NCBI GenBank assembly: GCA_000002435.2
Contig: CM018793.1
Source of the DNA: Giardia intestinalis
Taxonomy: Eukaryota
DNA length: 64,000 nucleotides
Reading direction: 5' to 3' (one strand)
How positions within the stretch are numbered: the first letter of the stretch is position 1; every line of letters begins with the position of its first letter. Positions 7,401 through 62,674 of this stretch are shown here, piece after piece. The notes under the pieces are model-generated. The model ran no database searches and was not told the DNA's origin. It worked only from the letters and a program-made list of their open reading frames with translations. Position numbers and translations under genes: made by a program.

Positions 7401-8666
7401 GAACTGTAGCTCTGAAAACACAACGCACCCCTGGTCAGTTGTGCTTCTCAAAGGTATAAGGATGTTGACACACTGGAGATAGGAGAGATCGTCCACTCCC
7501 TTGATGATGTCCATAGTTTTAATGTTGCTGGGCAGATCTGCAAATGATCCCATAGAGCTTGTGGGGGTGCCCATGGACATAGCCTGTGGAGAAATTGTTA
7601 AGAGCTGGCGTCTCCGCCCGCGCTTACCGGCACCAACTCCACCACTGAGATTAACCTTAATATTCTTCTCTTGAATGTTATAGATATCTGCTTTAAATCC
7701 CTGCTGGCTGGTTCTCTGAAGCATCTCCTGAAGAGCATCCTCATTAAAAACTGCCGAGAGGGTATAACGCTGTCCTTTTATATTCTTGTTGAGCAGCCCC
7801 TTGCTAGAAAATTCTGGAAACAGTCCCAATAGCTTCATGCTGGCATTGAGGGGTCCGTGAACTTCTAGCTTGACAGAGGAAAGCTCGGAGCAGGTATAAA
7901 AGCGCAAAAGCTGCGGGGAAAGAAGGGAGTTAGATAGTAACAATTCGAGATAGATCTGTCTGATGCGGTTCGGGTGGAATAGAGAGTGAGGGCTGTAATC
8001 CCCCGGCAACATCAAGTGAGTGGGGAAAATGAGGGTTTCTATAGGAGATAGAGTCAGCGGTGCTTCCCTTGAAAGATTTTGTGCCGTGTATTTGCGGACT
8101 GCTGGGGATAACGAAGAGTATGCAGCCTGCTTGTTCACGCGGGCCGATAGAGAGATGGATTCAGAGTAAGTGTAAGGAATGTTCAAGTCTATCCCAAACA
8201 TAATAGAGAACAAATTGAAGTTACCCCTGACCATGCGGGTAACAATCTCCATGGCCAGGATGAAGTGGTTTGGAGCAGTGTCAGCTTTTAACGCTGACTC
8301 TCCATAACCGATAATAGCAGCAGATGGCCTAGGAAACTGGGCATCTGCCAGCTCTTGGGGGGTGAGCTGCATATGAAGGAGTCGCTGAATATAGCTTAAC
8401 AAAGTAGAATTCTCCCTCATATAGTCGTAGAGTAATATGTCTGACCGTATAGCGGAAATATTGGTAGTCGATGTTATGTGATGCCCCACGGGCGCCTTTG
8501 TGTTATCTGGAGTGCCGTGCAGAGGAGAGGTTGTAGCAAAGTCAGACAAAGGAATAAAGGCACAAGACAACCCGTTCTTCTCTAGCTCTGCTTCTTCTCC
8601 CCTATTCAGCTTAACAATGACAATGCCCTGCATCATAACAATGAAGCGGCGGGAACGTCTTCCCAT
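1446..8666 (-). CDS. Very large hypothetical protein (2406 aa)
   Basis: Uninterrupted 7.2-kb ORF, with ATG at 8664-8666 (complement) after an A-rich leader and TAG at 1446-1448. No P-loop, kinase, motor or other motif I can name. Only small out-of-frame ORFs overlap it. Confidence 0.8.
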   Translation of the reverse strand: MGRRSRRFIVMMQGIVIVKLNRGEEAELEKNGLSCAFIPLSDFATTSPLHGTPDNTKAPVGHHITSTTNISAIRSDILLYDYMRENSTLLSYIQRLLHMQLTPQELADAQFPRPSAAIIGYGESALKADTAPNHFILAMEIVTRMVRGNFNLFSIMFGIDLNIPYTYSESISLSARVNKQAAYSSLSPAVRKYTAQNLSREAPLTLSPIETLIFPTHLMLPGDYSPHSLFHPNRIRQIYLELLLSNSLLSPQLLRFYTCSELSSVKLEVHGPLNASMKLLGLFPEFSSKGLLNKNIKGQRYTLSAVFNEDALQEMLQRTSQQGFKADIYNIQEKNIKVNLSGGVGAGKRGRRRQLLTISPQAMSMGTPTSSMGSFADLPSNIKTMDIIKGVDDLSYLQCVNILIPLRSTTDQGCVVFSELQFVQPTHLHTSPLRLSDQAKSLPVSPKQSTSTLTFTLTDSDSNAKKTLPIPFSDKMLIKSTLQDQKDSPKPQVLITKIILGNIVIDPEIPLPVSFLDELNTVKELEPYYAASKVAEHGNSVHRKTHRHDSKTKAASPTKPFVSEYVFKVVLDEPLEACLRGNDMELSAGSNESLGLSTLGSSLLKSSSIVTPQVDIDPVTLRSSSTVKVSARGSQRPTVQADESSDSSSASLGHEREFTDTSERLAAPSCSSFTRTVLTSILNKKIGIMQAYCKDYGEAVLASLAPDFRTGSLAIGHASLNSILDLSTYTITGSPDTAGLHFVLHSRCKSEVMEDRSAASLFSLGLSKLRKDPALKERAATFFKGISESGLFIFSLPNAELLHIDTAPIELVYPLFREHIGLTLSTATPDPSHTFLDLRATPGATGPMSQTLPGVLLSSWNHGPQPVSSLVGSLIDLSVSLTSLFIPSPMQAPKLVLGARDLVLHDEIGGGIPAIYLIWGLSLPYMQSILVRDRILCPTMGSQAYDSSTPREQRCAHGFFESCTCTLNDPLDFLSDVLNDISWLLIESGAQDLNSEQKDSRGDVDKALPWTSSFQRAEYTSPTGFLTTALGLCMPPTVTSIDLSHSSRLFTPVFSDYDSLFPPNVVSFLEYRERSPFLISVPGTRSEVETAITNVALYMKTVDAVLLGSAIQRLSVDIVRFDDEELFPKAVSFLCILALIMNSPFRLPIFSPLNLRLQYSRVYMVPHSVGSVDLTILDHEKKCVEYCSSLGISISPLDVATLKASTSMSSLGAHSQPSVPGLNNEVLSTNPHISWKIANAWKQQSLTFYINFQLYQLLSEGIKGLSSSTSFVGVLEQIIANQRLRSFFNTSLLATIHDMLCHPKCFVPAIVYMPLYGYFFVKSIFDVHRIGGWVAPSSEQLDINEYYGTVANISGVSQGLRCLYPASTSLISNMSLNSLTGIATLAAAPLNAPGTNSMNSSSTLDLTNYEAYGIHSQELEAIKTATGVYSDEPQKEPSAQFGHSLPRAAAKLAKNTEPEEKVQHLASSCLVSNRVSYLLTAKHLNEAVYTYDPQNSLISSMLTSGQLSINLATSILMTKLYNRKFSAFAKQLPSSQILPTTVLDLLVTSTYDQENMTKQLYHLLGCDSDKSILLVAKLPQAEDFSSLRAYDQLIKTVQEDDDPLVPFTIWDDIYDFVIENHAALFEIVDGCVFDFDEDLMLSIEAAILYDDIDFQTLDEKDEETAKYYYLQERRCGVQRTDEERRSISAISNRLCSPLRCSDSPFTPSELQLITLPNYHHGIRPLLNLMLAIHPSLLSYGSLDKLDRWKSKEIIRLARCRGLEIAKHVLLGKISPDSDIASTKKHPSYESVDKVMENYQRILHRPVKLGESRLLPIPTLDSISALIDERENDPAHLSSIHAPLFQRYTLLEERGAAPIFDIAQRELRSTVPYTLCTDITVKNTPLIPDAENPPNPSAEDSTNTFLTDYWSISIPKCRYITPERIRSLWNPLWSLEERTLDIIPMDPSELIRTPAEKLFKEELTKADARYNNMLNEDPAKPDATGSTSGTSVVKRQSSVQTLSSKCACGSFHAVLLPSQSSFQPQTLHQSIFSMSPYYTPPDLGDDVSRDSIFSKLVLHAVQEVCLLIREYLDLLANANKSQISRSRHESYRYIDEAVWGYIVSSIPVNDTYRHIKSNVSPQLWERKSTAPKARFGPHPLPSHSLQVRIESSTVEDAVSVMRRSRKSDPHILSAVKNSSLVKNVIQQSNISKYPSQVAVLKGIDMWGTNTSLDARIVEIEMFLTILWEHYPLLNPLLIGDVDNRCFQTPYCIASAYESGFSAIHELEEVRCIKFLLRQGRSLENEVLDELLMSQEKLRMLSKDCMKRRIRAIKMLEIERYNDIVAETEELCALYINTVWGKANHTDKRSSGSRMTHEMQIVGAYESDGCIQNDLGEFLDIIEDSIRANGLRLGPRWENDGFDYKDIM

Positions 8667-8958
8667 GAGCCTTTTTTTGGAGGTCTGACTTAAGAACGCA
8701 AGCTGATGTGTGAGCTAGGTATCCTGTGCAGAGATCTCTCCACAGAAAAGGTTGAATAAATGTGGCTGCAGTTTAGCTGGCACGTGGTGGGAGACAGGCG
8801 CCGGTCATCCTGCAGCATATGTGCTCCGGTGGGAGAGCAAAGCCGTGTCCAGCATCTCCAGTTCATCGTCCAGCGCAGCCAGAACGGCCACAGACGTAGA
8901 ATAGCTGGCGACGCGGTCCGTCTTTGCCACTATGATGGGAGCTTTAAATAAATATAAT

Positions 8959-11900
8959 ATGAACACAAAGACATCGTGGAGGCAGGAGCTTTGCAACTTG
9001 AGCCGCTCAGACAGGCCTGAGCCTTTCTTCCAGCGTGCGAAGGCTATTGTCCACATCCTGCAGACCAATCCCGAGGAGCGGCAGCAAATCTTGGAAAGCA
9101 TTATCTTAGAGATGGAGGAGGGGGTCTTGCTTGCATGTGCAGGATATTCGTCTGTCCTGGGGTACCTGCATCGTCGCGTGGGGTACATGAGCGAGTACAC
9201 AGCGGACAATATTATTTTCACAGTCACAGCCTATTCGGAGAAACACAAAGGCTCTGGAGATGAGCAGGCGCAGATTATCGCGTGTGCTTGCTTCATTTCA
9301 ATCATGTCTGCTCTCAGTTCCGTGAATGCTGAGTCTTCGGAGAAGTGTCTCTGCGCATATCAGACATCGTACGTGAGACTCTTCAGCCCCCTAGCTCGGG
9401 CACACTGCCAGGCGAGTCTTGCCCTCTCGCTCGTCATTATTGCAGGATCGCATCCCATCCGCACACTCTCAGTGGCTCAAGACCTGCTAATCAGACCATC
9501 TGATGGAGCTTCAAGCAAGGGAGTCGTTAACTATCTGCTCTTTCTCCTTGCTACGTTTGGAGAGCAGGACATAGAGCTTGCTGGCCCATACGTCGGCCCA
9601 TTTTCCCTTCCAATTGTGAGCTCTGACGATATTAAGGCAAAGATAGTACCGGTCAGCCTACTCAAGCAGCTTGACACGACCCTCATCTCTGAAGCCGCAA
9701 TATGGATATACTCACGTTCACAAGACATTTATCCTGGCAGAGTGCCCTCTGCCCAAGGGAAAAAAACTAAAGAATCAGAGGAAGACATACCCGCAAAGGA
9801 CATGCAGCTGCATCCTGTCTGGAAATACTTGTTTGCTTTCTATGCTGCTCTTTATAAGGCACACGGAGAAAATGGTGCAGAAGTGGCCGTGGCCATTCAA
9901 AGCCATCTTGTCCGTTCTCTTCACACACCCATCAAGGACTACAGTCAAGATATGTGCTATATTCTTGCTTCAATTTTCGAAGTAGCAGATGGAATTCCAG
10001 AGTACGATAATTTATTACCTAGACTACTTTGTGCAGGTGGTTTTCTGAAGACCTATATTCTTCCCAACAGCAACAAACATATATGCTCCAAGCTTATTCG
10101 TTATGTCTCCAAGTGGTGCTATACGGACATACGTCGTGGTCGTGAATTTGCCGTCAGTCTTAACTTAGAGCCGTTAGAAATCTATGGACTTATTGGTACG
10201 GAGTTTGGAAAACTTGTTCTCAAGCGTGCGCCAGAAGATGTTACTATTGGAATGCTGACTCATATGGCATCACAATTGCAGCGCTGCCTAACAACGCCTC
10301 TTTCACCGGAAAAGCTGGACGCTTTTCTGGTGGACTTCTCCTTTAGTATGAAAGCCCTTGCCCCCTCTTTTAAATCTTTTGCAAACGAGCTCGTGACCAT
10401 CTTTTTCAAATTCTTTTCGCTGTTCTATTATCAACTCCGTGATCACAGTCTCGTTAAGCATCCCATCAACACGGAGGAGTCTTACGCAATTCTGCGTAGA
10501 GGAAGACAAAAGTTTCTTATGACCTTGGAACCCTTGGCCACAGCTGATGCATTTGGTCAACTGGCTGCCCTTGTACTCCCATCTTTGTCTGCTAGTTACA
10601 GGTCGGCTGTTACCGGGGCAAAAGATAGCACGAGCATCAGACTGCATTATCCTGTTTTATTACAGACAGGCACTACGGCGCTGAGCCACCTTGACGGATT
10701 GCAGGTGGTTGATAGCGACCTTTCCTCCGTCTTTGCTAGGCATTATGATGCAGTGGCCATAGCAGCTCTTTGCTCACTGTTGATGGGCCTTGATGACGAG
10801 CACGTCTTATCGCAATCGACTACTGTGCAGAGCGTTTTAACGTCGGTTCATAGAGTCGCACAGTTAGCGGCTAAAGGCCCCCAAGAAGTTGACTTGGATG
10901 CCATACAAGTATCCCTACTTGGGCTTAATCATCACTTTCACGTTAGTAATAGTAACTTCGGCCGTGTGGCCTCGGTGGCCATAATGAAGCAGATTGCTAT
11001 TGACTTAACCGACAGAGCATTTAAATCCCTGCTATCAGCTATTCGCATTGCTCCACCTGGTCAATCTACAGAAAGCGAGGATGAAAGTGAGGCTGATCTC
11101 ATGGAGTTTCCTCAACCAAAGACAGACAATGAAACAGTGCAGGACGTCAATATTTACAGCTTAAAGGGTCTGGAGCAGGATGGAAGCCAACCACCCCAAA
11201 CGGATGTTAGTTCAGAGGGGTCCCGGGATGAGGTCTCGGCGATAAATGGTGTTGACGATCAGTACGATAAGATCCTTGTAGATACCTTCAAGGCGCACAG
11301 AGCTGCGCAAACAGAGAGCACACACGTGTTCATGAGGGCAGCGCGGACGTTGTATCCCCTCTCAATAGCTATGGAGGCCATTCCAGATCGCCCTATGAAT
11401 TGGGACGCCCTAGAGGCCTTATACATCCTCGTTTCAAATCCCCTTGCTGCAACAAGGGACGAGTACGGGTTTCAACACCCAGCCGTCAAGCAGACACCAG
11501 CCAACAAGCAGTACATTGAAATGATGGTACACCGGGCATCTGAGCTCATCGGATCCTACACGCAGAACAAGATCGTGCGCTCTAAGCTCTTCGTGAGTGA
11601 CTTATTTATATGCTATGAGATGGATACCCCCGAGAAATATGAGTTAAGATTCAGATGGAGTGACCTGACAAACACATTGATTCTGGCCGTTGTCAACTCA
11701 AAGCACAAAAGTCGCAAGCAAGCAGAAGATCTACTTGCCTTTATTGTTTGCCTTTTAAGCACAGCTAAGCGAGAATCCTTTGCAGAGATTGCCGAGGATC
11801 TACACGAACAATATGGCACTCCGATCGAAGATGCAATTGAATGCTGCGCAAAGCTGTGCAGAAGCACTGCAGATAAGTTAGTTGAGGCCACAATAAAGAA

Positions 11901-12360
11901 GATGGTGCGAAATCGGGATCTGGGAACCTCGTCGCACATTATGAAGCAGTTCATAGATGCTGGCTGCTACTCCACAATTGCAGTTATCACAGACCAGTTT
12001 TCTAGCGATGCATTTGTGTCTCTCTTTGTGGCTGAAGAATTCGTACTGCTTGTCAGCGACGCATTATCAGATTGGTGCAATGGTGTACGGCTCAAGAGGA
12101 TTGAGGGGGATATATACGTTAAGGACCTGATCAAGAAACTCTTAAAGAGTATGTTTGAGTGGTTGGCACTGAAAACTAATGAGGCTGGGCGTTCCCAGCA
12201 GTTGACTAAACTAAAGTATGCAGCGAACCGTGTCAAGAAGATCGTTAAAATGTGCGAAGGAATTGTAAGTTTAGAAGATGACTTAAAAGCTTTAGATGAT
12301 ACGCGTCAAAAGATCATCACAGGCAGAGAGGCGATGAGGGCAAAGGCGATAAAGAGATGA
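8959..12360 (+). CDS. Large hypothetical protein (1133 aa from the preferred start; the track ORF begins at 8932)
   Basis: The ORF is open from 8932 to the TGA at 12358-12360. I prefer the in-frame ATG at 8959 (MNTKTSW...) because it is directly preceded by CTTTAAATAAATATAAT, a typical A/T-rich initiator. The sequence upstream of 8932 is GC-rich. No recognisable domain. Confidence 0.7.
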   Translation: MNTKTSWRQELCNLSRSDRPEPFFQRAKAIVHILQTNPEERQQILESIILEMEEGVLLACAGYSSVLGYLHRRVGYMSEYTADNIIFTVTAYSEKHKGSGDEQAQIIACACFISIMSALSSVNAESSEKCLCAYQTSYVRLFSPLARAHCQASLALSLVIIAGSHPIRTLSVAQDLLIRPSDGASSKGVVNYLLFLLATFGEQDIELAGPYVGPFSLPIVSSDDIKAKIVPVSLLKQLDTTLISEAAIWIYSRSQDIYPGRVPSAQGKKTKESEEDIPAKDMQLHPVWKYLFAFYAALYKAHGENGAEVAVAIQSHLVRSLHTPIKDYSQDMCYILASIFEVADGIPEYDNLLPRLLCAGGFLKTYILPNSNKHICSKLIRYVSKWCYTDIRRGREFAVSLNLEPLEIYGLIGTEFGKLVLKRAPEDVTIGMLTHMASQLQRCLTTPLSPEKLDAFLVDFSFSMKALAPSFKSFANELVTIFFKFFSLFYYQLRDHSLVKHPINTEESYAILRRGRQKFLMTLEPLATADAFGQLAALVLPSLSASYRSAVTGAKDSTSIRLHYPVLLQTGTTALSHLDGLQVVDSDLSSVFARHYDAVAIAALCSLLMGLDDEHVLSQSTTVQSVLTSVHRVAQLAAKGPQEVDLDAIQVSLLGLNHHFHVSNSNFGRVASVAIMKQIAIDLTDRAFKSLLSAIRIAPPGQSTESEDESEADLMEFPQPKTDNETVQDVNIYSLKGLEQDGSQPPQTDVSSEGSRDEVSAINGVDDQYDKILVDTFKAHRAAQTESTHVFMRAARTLYPLSIAMEAIPDRPMNWDALEALYILVSNPLAATRDEYGFQHPAVKQTPANKQYIEMMVHRASELIGSYTQNKIVRSKLFVSDLFICYEMDTPEKYELRFRWSDLTNTLILAVVNSKHKSRKQAEDLLAFIVCLLSTAKRESFAEIAEDLHEQYGTPIEDAIECCAKLCRSTADKLVEATIKKMVRNRDLGTSSHIMKQFIDAGCYSTIAVITDQFSSDAFVSLFVAEEFVLLVSDALSDWCNGVRLKRIEGDIYVKDLIKKLLKSMFEWLALKTNEAGRSQQLTKLKYAANRVKKIVKMCEGIVSLEDDLKALDDTRQKIITGREAMRAKAIKR

Positions 12361-12395: not shown

Positions 12396-12866
12396 TTACC
12401 GTAGTGAATTTAAGTTGCGCTGCTGAATTCTTAAGACCAAGAGAATATCTTTTGACATGAGGGTGACTCGGTTGGCGTGGTAGGTTGCTAGCAAAGCTGT
12501 GGAGAATAGTTCAACTATGTATTCCTCTGTTGCAGATTGGAGAGCCTCCATGGCCATCCCTTGGAAGCGGTATGGACCCTTGGATCCATCTCTTTGCGCA
12601 ATTTGTTCAACAAGCTCCTGGACCAGTCTGGCGAATGGGAGCTTCTGTATTAGTGTATCTACATTGTGCTGATAGTGATATATTTCTCGCTCCATGTGTG
12701 ACACTCGTGCGGGCCGTCGTGGGACAGAGGAGAAAGGATCAGAAGAAAGCTTGCTGCGAGATTGGCGTGCATTTACGACCACCCCAGGTATCATGTTCCG
12801 TCCTGAGATCTCTCGTCTACGATGCCCAGTGTTTCGTGCCACTTGTGACCGTGAGCCTCCGCTCAT
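12396..12866 (-). CDS. Divergent histone H3 variant (cenH3-like)
   Basis: The 156-aa protein has a C-terminal histone fold matching H3: EREIYHYQHNVDTLIQKLPFARLVQEL...RFQGMAMEALQSATEEYIVELFSTALLATYHANRVTLMSKDILLVLRI versus canonical [26 protein letters not shown]...[48 protein letters not shown]. The N-terminal tail is long and non-canonical (no ARTKQTARKS), and loop 1 is slightly longer (QRDGSKGPYRFQ), as in centromeric H3 variants. Confidence 0.75.
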   Translation of the reverse strand: MSGGSRSQVARNTGHRRREISGRNMIPGVVVNARQSRSKLSSDPFSSVPRRPARVSHMEREIYHYQHNVDTLIQKLPFARLVQELVEQIAQRDGSKGPYRFQGMAMEALQSATEEYIVELFSTALLATYHANRVTLMSKDILLVLRIQQRNLNSLR

Positions 12867-12925
12867 CTTCTGTTTTTTCTCGAATTGAAAATTTACTCTT
12901 CACGCGCAGCTAGATCTCTTTGTAC

Positions 12926-15445
12926 ATGTACTCCACTCCTATCCCCACCTTCGCTAACAAGCCTGGGACAGTTCCCAGGAAAAAGGACGGTGTGACCACA
13001 GGCCCCCGTGTGAAGCAAGCTCTCCCCCCTATTAACCAAGTCCACGACCCCGAAAAGAAGACTCAAACCTTTTCACGTTCAGCAATTAGTGCGCTCAGCG
13101 CTGCCTCCCAGGAGGTCTTCAGTGAATCGAGTCAGCACAGTCAGGTTTATGCGGCCGAGATGCGGAACATTAAAGAGCGCCTTGCTAACCGAGCTCAAGC
13201 AGATGACGACTCCATTCAGCTGGCCATTCGTGCAGCAGACAACGATACTAGAAAGGCACTGGAGGCAGCAGGCTTCTTTCGAGATGAAGCAGCCAGCGCA
13301 CGCCAGCAGAGTGAGATGCTTATGCAGCGCGTGTTGACGCTTGAGAAGGACAACGATGCATTATCTAAACGTCTTGATAAGAGTAGCAGCATGCTGAATT
13401 CAGTCGCACTCGAATTGTTCTCTGATATTTCTACTCAGACCATCGATAAAGACATGCTTCTTACTCAATATTCACGCATAAAGTCGCTTGTAGCAGATTG
13501 CAATCACATATCTTCGGAAATAGGTTTCCCATCAACGTCGGTTCCAGAAATCGTGGAGCTTCTTGATTCTCAAATGCTTCAGGGCATGAGTGGGAACACA
13601 CTTGTTCTTGAAGGAGTGCCGCGATCTATTCAGTCCATTGCCCTGTCATTGACTCTTGCTGAATGCCAAATCCTACGCTCTCTCAATTTCCTTCTCAAGC
13701 ACCTGATCTCAGAGAATCAAAAGGTGGCCGCTCAAGACAGTTCGAACGCACAAATGAGCACTGAGACGGCAGGAGCCAAACTGATTAAAAGTATCTCGAA
13801 GGAGATGCCTATAGGAGCGAGCCACCAAAGTGACCCAGCACTCGATGACATCATTCGGCAAGCGACACTATCTTCTCCACTAATGAGCTCAGAGCAGCTT
13901 CAGCATCCCAACGATGTCTTCCGCATAGAGTTCCAGGGATCCGGCGTTGCCGTCGCAAAGGCCCTTGTTGAGCTCCGACGAAGAACTGCGTCGTTTTTAC
14001 TCCGAGAGGCCAGGTTTGATCACGATCCACTTCTCAAGCGTGCTGCTACTGATAATACAACCTTGCGCACGTTGGTTGCAGCTTTGCAGAACGAACTGTA
14101 CTTTACCCGTCAAGCGCTTGAAATGGTCAAGGGATTGGGGCTCAGTTCTGATATCTTTCCCATTGAGAGCCAAGCTAGCACTGATAACTTAGCCCTTAAC
14201 GACGGTGGTCAGGATACTCAGTCCGGCTTGAGTAGTACTGGACGCAGCGACACTAGCGCTTCCACTCCGGTCCCTGGGACTCACCTCTCACTGCCAAACT
14301 TCTCTTCTACTGATATTATTAAGTTGGCGGAGAACGCTTTAACCAGCGCTGTGGACCTTGAGCTCTTGCCATCGGAGCTGACCAAGAAGTTAGAGGATAT
14401 AGTGGAAAACGCACTAGCCACGTCTGATGATGTAGATAAGGCCAAGGAGACTCAGCAATACAGTTCTGAGGAAAGGGTTTCGGTAACAGAGATTCAGAGA
14501 CTTATTATGCTTCGTGAAAAGGCACTACAGCATATAGACACTGCAGCCCAAGAGTTTATCGACCAACTGGCCACTTCTGATGTAATGTCCGCCATTGCAA
14601 CTATAGAAGAGGGCTCATCTGAAATGCAGGGTATTTTTGGTGTAGCTACATATGATGAGCCTTCTTCCCTTCTATCCTTTGCTAAAGATGCAAACGAAAG
14701 TCAAGCCAAATTGTTAGCACGCTTTTCAAAGGAGCAGGACAATTTCATTGGCGACATCAGACAAATAAGTATTAATATTGGCGAAGGCCATACTGAGAAA
14801 TACAATAGAGATGGATCGGGCTTTCTAGATGTCCTCTATAGACACGCCACTCTCTTGGAGCACACTTTAGAATTGCATAAAATAGTCGTTGCACGTAACA
14901 TGGCGTTAGTCAGGCTTCAGGCCATCATCCTTTGTCTTCAGAAGAATAATGAGAAGAACATTCGAGAAGTAGCCTATCTGGCCGCTGTTCGCAACGGTAT
15001 TTTAAAGGGCTATGTAGAACAATCTCGAAAAATGGCTGTTCTGCGCCAGGAAAATGATTATTTCAGGCTCCAAATTGCCCGATCGTCCTCTCGGGATATC
15101 AATTCACAGGAAAAGAGAAAACATGACGCCCTCTCAGCGGCCATAACTGATGCAGCCATAACTGGCGATCCTCAGTACTGTTCTTCCCTGGCCAGCTGTG
15201 TCGAGTCCTTAACGCAGAGCTATCGAACAAAGATTGCAGAATGCAAAGCAGAAATGTGTGCATTTGGAAATACACTTACTGCTACCTCAGACAAGATCAT
15301 GCAAATCCTGGAAGAGTATCGCTTGCTGATAGAAACAAGGGCCTGCAAACTAGTCCAAACGGACAGGAAGAGACGTACCTTCGACACAGCAGTCGCCACC
15401 GAGGATCCAGAGGCAGCCCCTGCTGCAGTGCCGAAGAAGAAGTGA
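12926..15445 (+). CDS. Hypothetical protein (~840 aa), possibly coiled-coil rich
   Basis: The track ORF starts at a TTG (12920); the first ATG is at 12926. It is open to the TGA at 15443-15445. Transcribed divergently from the H3-variant gene across a 59-bp spacer. No recognisable domain. Confidence 0.7.
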   Translation: MYSTPIPTFANKPGTVPRKKDGVTTGPRVKQALPPINQVHDPEKKTQTFSRSAISALSAASQEVFSESSQHSQVYAAEMRNIKERLANRAQADDDSIQLAIRAADNDTRKALEAAGFFRDEAASARQQSEMLMQRVLTLEKDNDALSKRLDKSSSMLNSVALELFSDISTQTIDKDMLLTQYSRIKSLVADCNHISSEIGFPSTSVPEIVELLDSQMLQGMSGNTLVLEGVPRSIQSIALSLTLAECQILRSLNFLLKHLISENQKVAAQDSSNAQMSTETAGAKLIKSISKEMPIGASHQSDPALDDIIRQATLSSPLMSSEQLQHPNDVFRIEFQGSGVAVAKALVELRRRTASFLLREARFDHDPLLKRAATDNTTLRTLVAALQNELYFTRQALEMVKGLGLSSDIFPIESQASTDNLALNDGGQDTQSGLSSTGRSDTSASTPVPGTHLSLPNFSSTDIIKLAENALTSAVDLELLPSELTKKLEDIVENALATSDDVDKAKETQQYSSEERVSVTEIQRLIMLREKALQHIDTAAQEFIDQLATSDVMSAIATIEEGSSEMQGIFGVATYDEPSSLLSFAKDANESQAKLLARFSKEQDNFIGDIRQISINIGEGHTEKYNRDGSGFLDVLYRHATLLEHTLELHKIVVARNMALVRLQAIILCLQKNNEKNIREVAYLAAVRNGILKGYVEQSRKMAVLRQENDYFRLQIARSSSRDINSQEKRKHDALSAAITDAAITGDPQYCSSLASCVESLTQSYRTKIAECKAEMCAFGNTLTATSDKIMQILEEYRLLIETRACKLVQTDRKRRTFDTAVATEDPEAAPAAVPKKK

Positions 15446-62533: not shown

Positions 62534-62674
62534 TAAAACTGGCTCTTTCAAAAACCTTCAAATTAAAAACTATGATGAGGTTAGCGATCCCAAGCGGGGC
62601 CTGGCCCTGCGTTGCAGACAACGCATCACCGCTCTGACCTTTACTAAATGCTGAGTGTGGCTCTGAGGGCTTTT

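Follow-up and report, generated by a model that had tools for sequence, protein, structure and literature searches.

A divergent histone H3 gene of Giardia intestinalis is almost certainly the published centromeric variant cenH3

Introduction

Which histone H3 variant is encoded by a divergent H3 gene of Giardia intestinalis? The gene lies in a stretch of 64,000 nucleotides (the window; GenBank assembly GCA_000002435.2, contig CM018793.1, assemblage A), where an open reading frame (ORF) of 471 nt including the stop occupies positions 12396..12866 on the minus strand, runs from an ATG to a TAA and encodes 156 residues. An earlier note on this DNA had taken the product for one of two diplomonad variants, the centromeric H3 (cenH3) or the divergent H3B, and had pointed to features typical of the former. 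We find that the window gene is almost certainly the published G. intestinalis cenH3, GL50803_20037, a histone that marks the chromosomal sites of spindle attachment. The cenH3 reading is right, but the gene is already known: it was described in 2007 and is not a new finding.

Identity of the gene

In an exact-sequence look-up, the window protein was 100% identical to XP_001709403.1, KAE8305020.1 and UniProt A8B678 of G. intestinalis. XP_001709403.1 and A8B678 are named just "histone H3", and the nearest named relative in the sequence search was "Histone H3 [Giardia lamblia P15]", at 94% identity. The centromeric assignment of GL50803_20037 is found in the literature and is absent from the names of the public protein records.

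GlCenH3 (GL50803_20037) has been cloned as a 471-bp fragment; the gene-specific parts of the two primers read ATGAGCGGAGGCTCACGG and CCGTAGTGAATTTAAGTT (PMC8011197). In the window each primer matches exactly at a single site: one, at 12849-12866 (-), covers the opening 18 nt of the ORF, and the other, at 12399-12416 (+), the closing 18 nt of its sense codons. A published table of Giardia H3 genes, which refers all three to Dawson et al. 2007, lists inserts of 470 bp for Cen H3 (GL50803_20037), 479 bp for H3B (GL50803_3367) and 440 bp for H3 (GL50803_135231) (PMC6429047). Because the ORF has 156 codons, only the Cen H3 size fits among these. The entry "Giardia_intestinalis_GINT008371_CenpA" of the curated file CenpA.fa (Dataset EV1, van Hooff et al. 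2017, PMC5579357) is letter for letter the window protein, and it is the only Giardia entry in that file. Since the primers, the gene IDs with their insert sizes and the CenpA.fa entry agree, the window gene is cenH3 and not H3B, which decides the choice that the earlier note had left between the two. Compared with the described Giardia cenH3 (Dawson, Sagolla and Cande 2007, Chromosoma 116:175), it is the same gene with a 471-bp coding sequence (CDS), and we see no difference. The assignment rests on sequence identity with an experimentally characterized gene; the hallmark features described below add support.

H3B is likewise a divergent, nuclear H3 variant of the same genome. By sequence features alone both variants would pass as divergent H3s, and a reading of the window gene as the non-centromeric H3B draws on this and on the way in which the two were set apart, by gene ID, primers and insert size and not by direct alignment. 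Against it, two papers give H3B a separate ID, and its ~9 bp longer insert (479 bp, ~159 codons, versus 470 bp and 156 codons for Cen H3) does not fit; the GL50803_20037 primers match the window ORF exactly; and the one Giardia member of CenpA.fa, an ortholog set that leaves H3B out, is the window sequence. A best match to H3B, which the earlier note had said would argue against a centromeric role, is not what IDs and insert sizes indicate. We regard the H3B reading as very improbable, and effectively refuted.

H3B was not identifiable among the top 150 of an exhaustive search of representative proteins, nor among the listed matches of a profile search, and a word-indexed search with the window protein gave only that protein's own orthologs. 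Candidates of 159 residues were rejected: three in the exhaustive search were a fungal protein, a nematode protein and a metagenome protein named centromeric H3, and P0216 (159 residues, profile search) had no likeness to Giardia sequences.

Histone fold and departures from H3

The H3-type fold claimed earlier is borne out by Pfam, where PF00125 (Histone) matched the window protein with E=4e-33 and 114.7 bits against a cut-off of 26.4, far beyond chance. All of the H3 motifs named in support of it are present: KLPFARLV at residues 75-82, RFQ at 100-102, ALQ at 108-110 and TLMSKD at 135-140. A sequence search of PDB gave 176 matches, and the 60 that were listed are all H3, CENP-A or Cse4 chains. 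With a core-histone profile and H3 motifs in alpha1, alpha2 and alpha3, the protein belongs to the H3 family. A weak match to Pfam CENP-T_C (E=8.6e-06) might suggest another histone-fold protein, such as CENP-T; at 26.2 bits it falls below the 28.1-bit cut-off of that profile and compares with 114.7 bits for Histone, and we consider a CENP-T identity refuted.

An AlphaFold 2 (AF2) monomer model was built from a 51-sequence alignment (mean predicted local distance difference test score, pLDDT, of 66) and was used for helix boundaries alone. It shows the alphaN-alpha1-loop 1 (L1)-alpha2-loop 2 (L2)-alpha3 arrangement (Table 1). Relative to H3, the alpha1 region carries ~1.5 additional helical turns (EQIAQRD) and the C-terminal end exceeds H3 by 4 residues; the HMMER alignment stops at query residue 148, which corresponds to H3 132/136. 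According to PMC2995078, L1 and alpha2 make up the centromere-targeting part in other cenH3s; L1 and alpha2 of the Giardia protein correspond to this CENP-A targeting region.

Table 1. Features of the cenH3 locus, in window coordinates
Feature	Position	Strand	Basis or remark
Complete cenH3 CDS, GL50803_20037	12396..12866	-	156 codons plus TAA stop at 12396-12398; ORF list, Pfam, identity, primers
N-terminal tail, residues 1-56, Arg-rich, fast-evolving	12699..12866	-	Sequence; pLDDT; dN/dS
alphaN helix, residues 57-67 (HMEREIYHYQH)	12666..12698	-	DSSP on AF2 model
alpha1 region, residues 71-93, including KLPFARLV	12588..12656	-	AF2 helices 71-75 and 77-93; PF-to-ALQ spacing
Loop 1, residues 94-99 (GSKGPY)	12570..12587	-	AF2 model
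alpha2, residues 100-131 (RFQGMAMEALQSATEEYIVELFSTALLATYHA)	12474..12569	-	AF2 helix 100-131, pLDDT 76-87
Loop 2, alpha3 and C-terminal end, residues 132-156 (NRVTLMSKDILLVLRIQQRNLNSLR)	12399..12473	-	AF2 helix 138-155
Divergent intergenic putative promoter, 59 bp	12867..12925		Common to cenH3 and the 839-residue gene (ATG 12926, +)
AGTGAAT, poly(A)-consensus match for the 1142-residue gene	12403..12409	+	Within the cenH3 CDS, at its 3' end

The N-terminal tail and the alpha1/L1 region depart most visibly from H3, as the earlier note had proposed for both. Residues 1-56 contain one lysine (K39) and 11 arginines, and neither the sequence nor its HMMER alignment to H3 chains shows the ARTKQTARKS motif there. 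With a single lysine and no ARTKQTARKS, the tail therefore provides no K4/K9/K27/K36 context. AlphaFold modeled residues 1-56 as disordered, with pLDDT below 50 across most of residues 1-46. The tail is unrelated to the H3 tail, as expected of the cenH3 class, and cannot be aligned even to that of the G. muris ortholog.

We measured the alpha1/L1 region as the spacing between the "PF" of alpha1 and the "ALQ" of alpha2. This spacing is 32 residues in the window protein, 26 in canonical H3, 29 in yeast Cse4 and 28 in the H3 chain 7d69_A, from an entry that we take to be the G. lamblia nucleosome structure. The region is thus lengthened by 6 residues over canonical H3 and by 4 over the Giardia-type chain, and the predicted extension of loop 1 holds in this sense. 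In the AF2 model the additional residues extend alpha1 (helix 77-93) at its C-terminal end, and the 6-residue loop GSKGPY comes next, at 94-99; for this reason, "extended alpha1/loop 1 junction" is, on the model, a more exact description than "longer loop". A loop 1 extension is common in cenH3s and not obligatory, according to PMC2995078.

Relatives in diplomonads

Beyond the cluster of the cenH3 itself, an exhaustive search, which covered 1.84 billion representatives, gave no close match. The nearest single-domain relatives, which include G. muris TNJ28831.1 and a protein of Hexamita inflata, have an unusual signature in common: EIY.YQ..., KLPFAR..., NRVTLM... and VLVLRI. The alphaN signature EIY.YQ is common to the window protein, the relatives P0038 and P0040 and the Spironucleus protein P0173, and reads EIYAMQ in the Hexamita protein P0163.

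The G. muris "histone H3" TNJ28831.1 has 133 residues and is encoded at 8001-8402 (+) of locus L001, from CM016926.1. Its gene stands head-to-head, at a distance of 24 bp, with the ortholog of an 839-residue gene that adjoins cenH3 in the window; the two 839-type proteins are 47% identical over their full length (E=0). Because it adjoins the ortholog of the same neighbor, TNJ28831.1 is by gene order the positional (syntenic) ortholog of Giardia cenH3. It can now carry the label "syntenic cenH3 ortholog"; the records say simply "histone H3". The histone folds of the two proteins are just 46% identical, a divergence that canonical histones do not reach. On the other side of the G. muris gene lies an ankyrin/RING protein, and synteny breaks there.

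The diplomonad relatives, G. muris TNJ28831.1 (133 residues), Spironucleus salmonicida P0173 (129 residues) and Hexamita inflata P0163 (130 residues), are all annotated plainly "histone H3". They share with cenH3 the fold signature RLPFAR...[EAD]A[LV]Q...RVT[LI] and a lengthened alpha1/L1, with PF-to-ALQ spacings of 30 in G. muris and 35 in Hexamita; the Spironucleus protein falls outside the measuring pattern. They differ from the window protein in that their folds are only 41-46% identical to it (best local BLASTP) and their tails are shorter and unalignable.

Evolution within the G. intestinalis group

We compared four sequences, from assemblages A, B and E and from ERR3333382, by the Nei-Gojobori ratio of nonsynonymous to synonymous substitution rates (dN/dS); dS is saturated against the most distant lineage, and the values below are from comparisons with unsaturated dS. 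The histone fold is under strong purifying selection (dN/dS 0.007-0.018), and the tail evolves much faster: dN/dS of residues 1-57 is 0.15-0.25, and 21 of the 27 variable positions lie there. Among assemblages A, B and E the fold changes solely at the loop 1 positions 95 (S/A) and 96 (K/R). The loop 2/alpha3/C-terminal segment is invariant in these three assemblages and has one N-to-S change in ERR3333382. Change is thus concentrated in the tail and loop 1, as in the cenH3 class, in a comparison that covered cenH3 sequences only.

ERR3333382 is a Logan contig from a fourth Giardia lineage. Its syntenic cenH3, P0017, is 88% identical to the window protein; in comparisons with assemblages A and E, substitution at synonymous sites has reached saturation. 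The fold of P0017 carries the further changes I117M and N153S, and the N-terminal edge of its alphaN the changes M58V and E59D.

These data also bear on whether the gene is decaying. A pseudogene is not expected to be an intact ORF, syntenic in four Giardia lineages, with a fold dN/dS of ~0.01, and the protein is detected in a nuclei-containing Giardia fraction by an antibody raised to its recombinant form. Because purifying selection and protein detection coincide, the pseudogene explanation is refuted.

Many automated public gene calls start cenH3 at an internal methionine and give proteins of 131-132 residues, or of 99 residues from Met58. Codons 1-24 (12795-12866, -) have a dN/dS of 0.02-0.12. 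Because of this low ratio and of an A/T-rich initiator region directly upstream of M1, the 156-residue form starting at M1 is likely a better gene model than the 131/132-residue form starting at M25.

Class assignment: cenH3 versus bulk H3

The window protein resembles the CENP-A/Cse4/CID class in its H3-type fold, its unrelated tail and its longer alpha1/loop 1 (+3 in Cse4, +6 in Giardia cenH3). It is unlike that class in its short, 56-residue, nearly lysine-free tail, in an insertion that is longer than in Cse4 and consists mostly of additional alpha1 helix in the AF2 model, and in a C-terminus that runs 4 residues beyond H3 and does not resemble the LEEGLG end of CENP-A in CenpA.fa. Malik and Henikoff reportedly put forward, in 2003, the loss of the conserved H3 alpha1 glutamine (PFQRLV) as a criterion for cenH3. 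The window protein reads PFARLV, with Ala79 at this position, as in many fungal Cse4 proteins; the loss is not diagnostic within Giardia because the Giardia-type H3 7d69_A has a serine there (PFSKLV).

A search with a profile of the window protein and its relatives in diplomonads brought up 849 proteins. A Spironucleus salmonicida protein is among the listed matches, and alpha1/L1 is longer than in canonical H3 in 107 of the 111 profile matches that could be measured.

Could the gene encode a bulk-chromatin H3, canonical or H3.3-like, that is divergent simply because Giardia histones generally are? NCBI and UniProt name the protein "histone H3" only, among single-domain PDB matches the Giardia-type H3 chain 7d69_A ranks first, and that chain itself lacks the alpha1 glutamine and has an alpha1/L1 longer by 2 than canonical H3. 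On the other hand, 7d69_A keeps a lysine-rich ARTKHTARK... tail, as opposed to one lysine in the 56 tail residues of the window protein; the three Giardia H3 proteins are only 33-46% identical to each other (PMC8011197); and a published H3-family tree puts the canonical H3 genes GINT004958 and GINT005523 elsewhere. The divergence from G. muris, at 46% fold identity, also speaks against a bulk histone. The promoter gives a further distinction. A "him" motif, GRGCGCAGATTNGG, is present in all four core-histone gene families (PMC1872034). We found no match to it near cenH3 with up to 2 mismatches, and the whole window holds just two matches (15836 and 35235), no more than chance would give. The window gene thus has neither the lysine-rich ARTK... 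tail nor the him promoter motif of a canonical H3. The absence of him would fit a regulation of cenH3 separate from that of the bulk histones. We give the bulk-H3 explanation next to no credence.

No observation speaks against the identification as cenH3. Several nevertheless limit what these comparisons can say about class. Among single-domain PDB matches, 7d69_A scores 70.6 bits and H3.2 65.5 bits, above the 56.5 bits of the Cse4 part of 2l5a. We rejected PDB rank as a means of telling cenH3 from H3: the top match, 2l5a, is a Cse4-Scm3-H4 fusion chain, and its rank is inflated because the fused H4 adds score. Foldseek, run with the AF2 monomer model, returns H3 chains intermingled with CENP-A chains, at poor template-modeling (TM) scores of 0.14-0.28. 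Sequence or fold similarity does not by itself separate cenH3 from H3. The H3-family tree places GINT008371 in the CenpA cluster with local branch supports of ~0-2, so that phylogeny alone is no proof of CENP-A orthology, and tree support for a common ancestry of Giardia cenH3 with other cenH3s is negligible. The profile search brought up mainly CSE4-type proteins, and among the 120 listed profile matches at least 15 are named CSE4 or centromeric H3, an enrichment that is partly built in because the candidates were picked via common 5-mers such as LPFAR. Across the four G. intestinalis-group sequences, dN/dS stays well below 1 in all regions: selection is purifying, and there is no sign of positive selection of the kind that some cenH3s are reported to undergo. 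The separation from H3B goes by gene IDs and insert sizes, as described above, and the centromere localization of Dawson et al. 2007 is known here through citing papers.

Centromeric role

The tagging experiment that the earlier note had proposed is already published: citing papers credit it to Dawson et al. 2007. PMC9396995 places cenH3 at centromeres in Giardia; PMC2995078 describes single centromeres as detectable in interphase Giardia nuclei; and PMC5579357 counts Giardia cenH3 among the experimentally identified centromeric H3 variants. The same three sources relay the centromeric localization reported by Dawson et al. 2007, as discrete foci that run ahead of the chromosomes in anaphase. 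A nuclear localization is likewise credited to that study by citing papers. An antibody to recombinant GlCenH3 gave a signal only in the nuclei-containing fraction, and the protein level was higher in G2/M than in G1/S (PMC8011197). An attempt to make APEX fusions of Cen H3 gave none that were viable (PMC6429047).

Taken together with the features of the protein, these reports suggest how cenH3 might act. The histone fold (residues 57-156) would pair with H4 and replace H3 in centromeric nucleosomes, and the alpha1/loop 1 junction together with alpha2 would set cenH3 apart from bulk H3 for targeted deposition. The Arg-rich, nearly lysine-free tail would be unable to carry the H3 K4/K9/K27/K36 marks. 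Nucleosomes with cenH3 would mark centromere identity epigenetically and, in both Giardia nuclei, nucleate a kinetochore for the capture of spindle microtubules. For Giardia, we only infer the nucleosome incorporation with H4, the L1/alpha2-based targeting and the outer-kinetochore route, by analogy with characterized cenH3s.

The published ortholog sets list Giardia orthologs of CenpA, Nuf2, Spc24, Spc25, CenpE, Aurora, Incenp, Bub3, Mad2, Mps1 and Plk (PMC5579357). In the same sets there is no Giardia entry in CenpC.fa or in any other file of the CCAN (constitutive centromere-associated network) or the Mis12 complex. Because CenpC.fa has no Giardia entry, Giardia may lack the protein that usually reads the C-terminus of CENP-A. 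The C-terminal end of cenH3, ...RIQQRNLNSLR, which accounts for the 4 residues beyond H3, is nearly invariant. We speculate, as an unlikely idea, that the alpha1/L1 extension and this end, both strongly conserved and lineage-specific, might form a docking surface for an unconventional, diplomonad-specific linker from centromeric chromatin to the Ndc80 complex; divergent CENP-C-like proteins that have escaped detection are an equally good explanation for the missing linker.

Identification, naming and localization of cenH3 date from 2007; later work has employed it as a nuclear marker and in comparative genomics of the kinetochore. The practical value of GL50803_20037 is that of a handle, or reagent, in an aneuploidy-prone binucleate parasite. 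It could address two questions: what the DNA sequence of Giardia centromeres is, and how cenH3 nucleosomes are linked to Nuf2, Spc24 and Spc25 without a detected CENP-C. Our searches of the literature brought up no mapping of Giardia centromere DNA by means of cenH3.

Gene neighborhood

The cenH3 gene is flanked by an 839-residue gene at 12926-15445 (+) and by a 1142-residue gene at 8932-12360 (+), which is convergent with it. Neither flanking protein has a Pfam domain, so the neighbors provide no functional context. Assemblages B and E, as well as ERR3333382, share with the window the order Rpc4/~840-residue gene/cenH3. A downstream gene of ~1145 residues was called in assemblage B and ERR3333382 and not at the assemblage E locus. 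The 839-residue gene and cenH3 stand head-to-head in G. intestinalis and G. muris alike, which may reflect co-regulation or plain local synteny; the next gene beyond the 839-residue gene is of similar size in the two species, a 323-residue Rpc4 in the window and an uncharacterized 299-residue gene without a Pfam match in G. muris.

The 59-bp spacer between the divergent genes may act as a promoter. Conserved in the cross-assemblage alignment, A/T-rich elements (AAATTTT, GAAAAAAC) occur immediately upstream of the cenH3 start codon. A scan for sigma-70 promoters and intrinsic terminators was disregarded as not applicable to a eukaryote.

At the 3' side, the stop codons of the convergent 1142-residue gene (12358-12360) and of cenH3 (12396-12398) are 35 nt apart in the window and 19 nt apart in assemblage B. 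The Giardia polyadenylation consensus is AGT[A/G]AA[T/C] (PMC1872034). The AGTGAAT match within the cenH3 CDS is conserved in all four Giardia sequences, and no AGTRAAY consensus is seen in the ~90 nt that follow the cenH3 stop. Because the AGTGAAT of the 1142-residue gene lies in the cenH3 CDS and cenH3 has no consensus of its own over that distance, an antisense overlap of the two transcripts at their 3' ends is probable.

Elsewhere in the window, we found no tRNA genes. The only Rfam match is the Giardia C/D-box small nucleolar RNA GlsR16 (RF02338), which spans 62565-62641 (+) at full length with 106.4 bits against a gathering threshold of 100 (E=7.7e-28).

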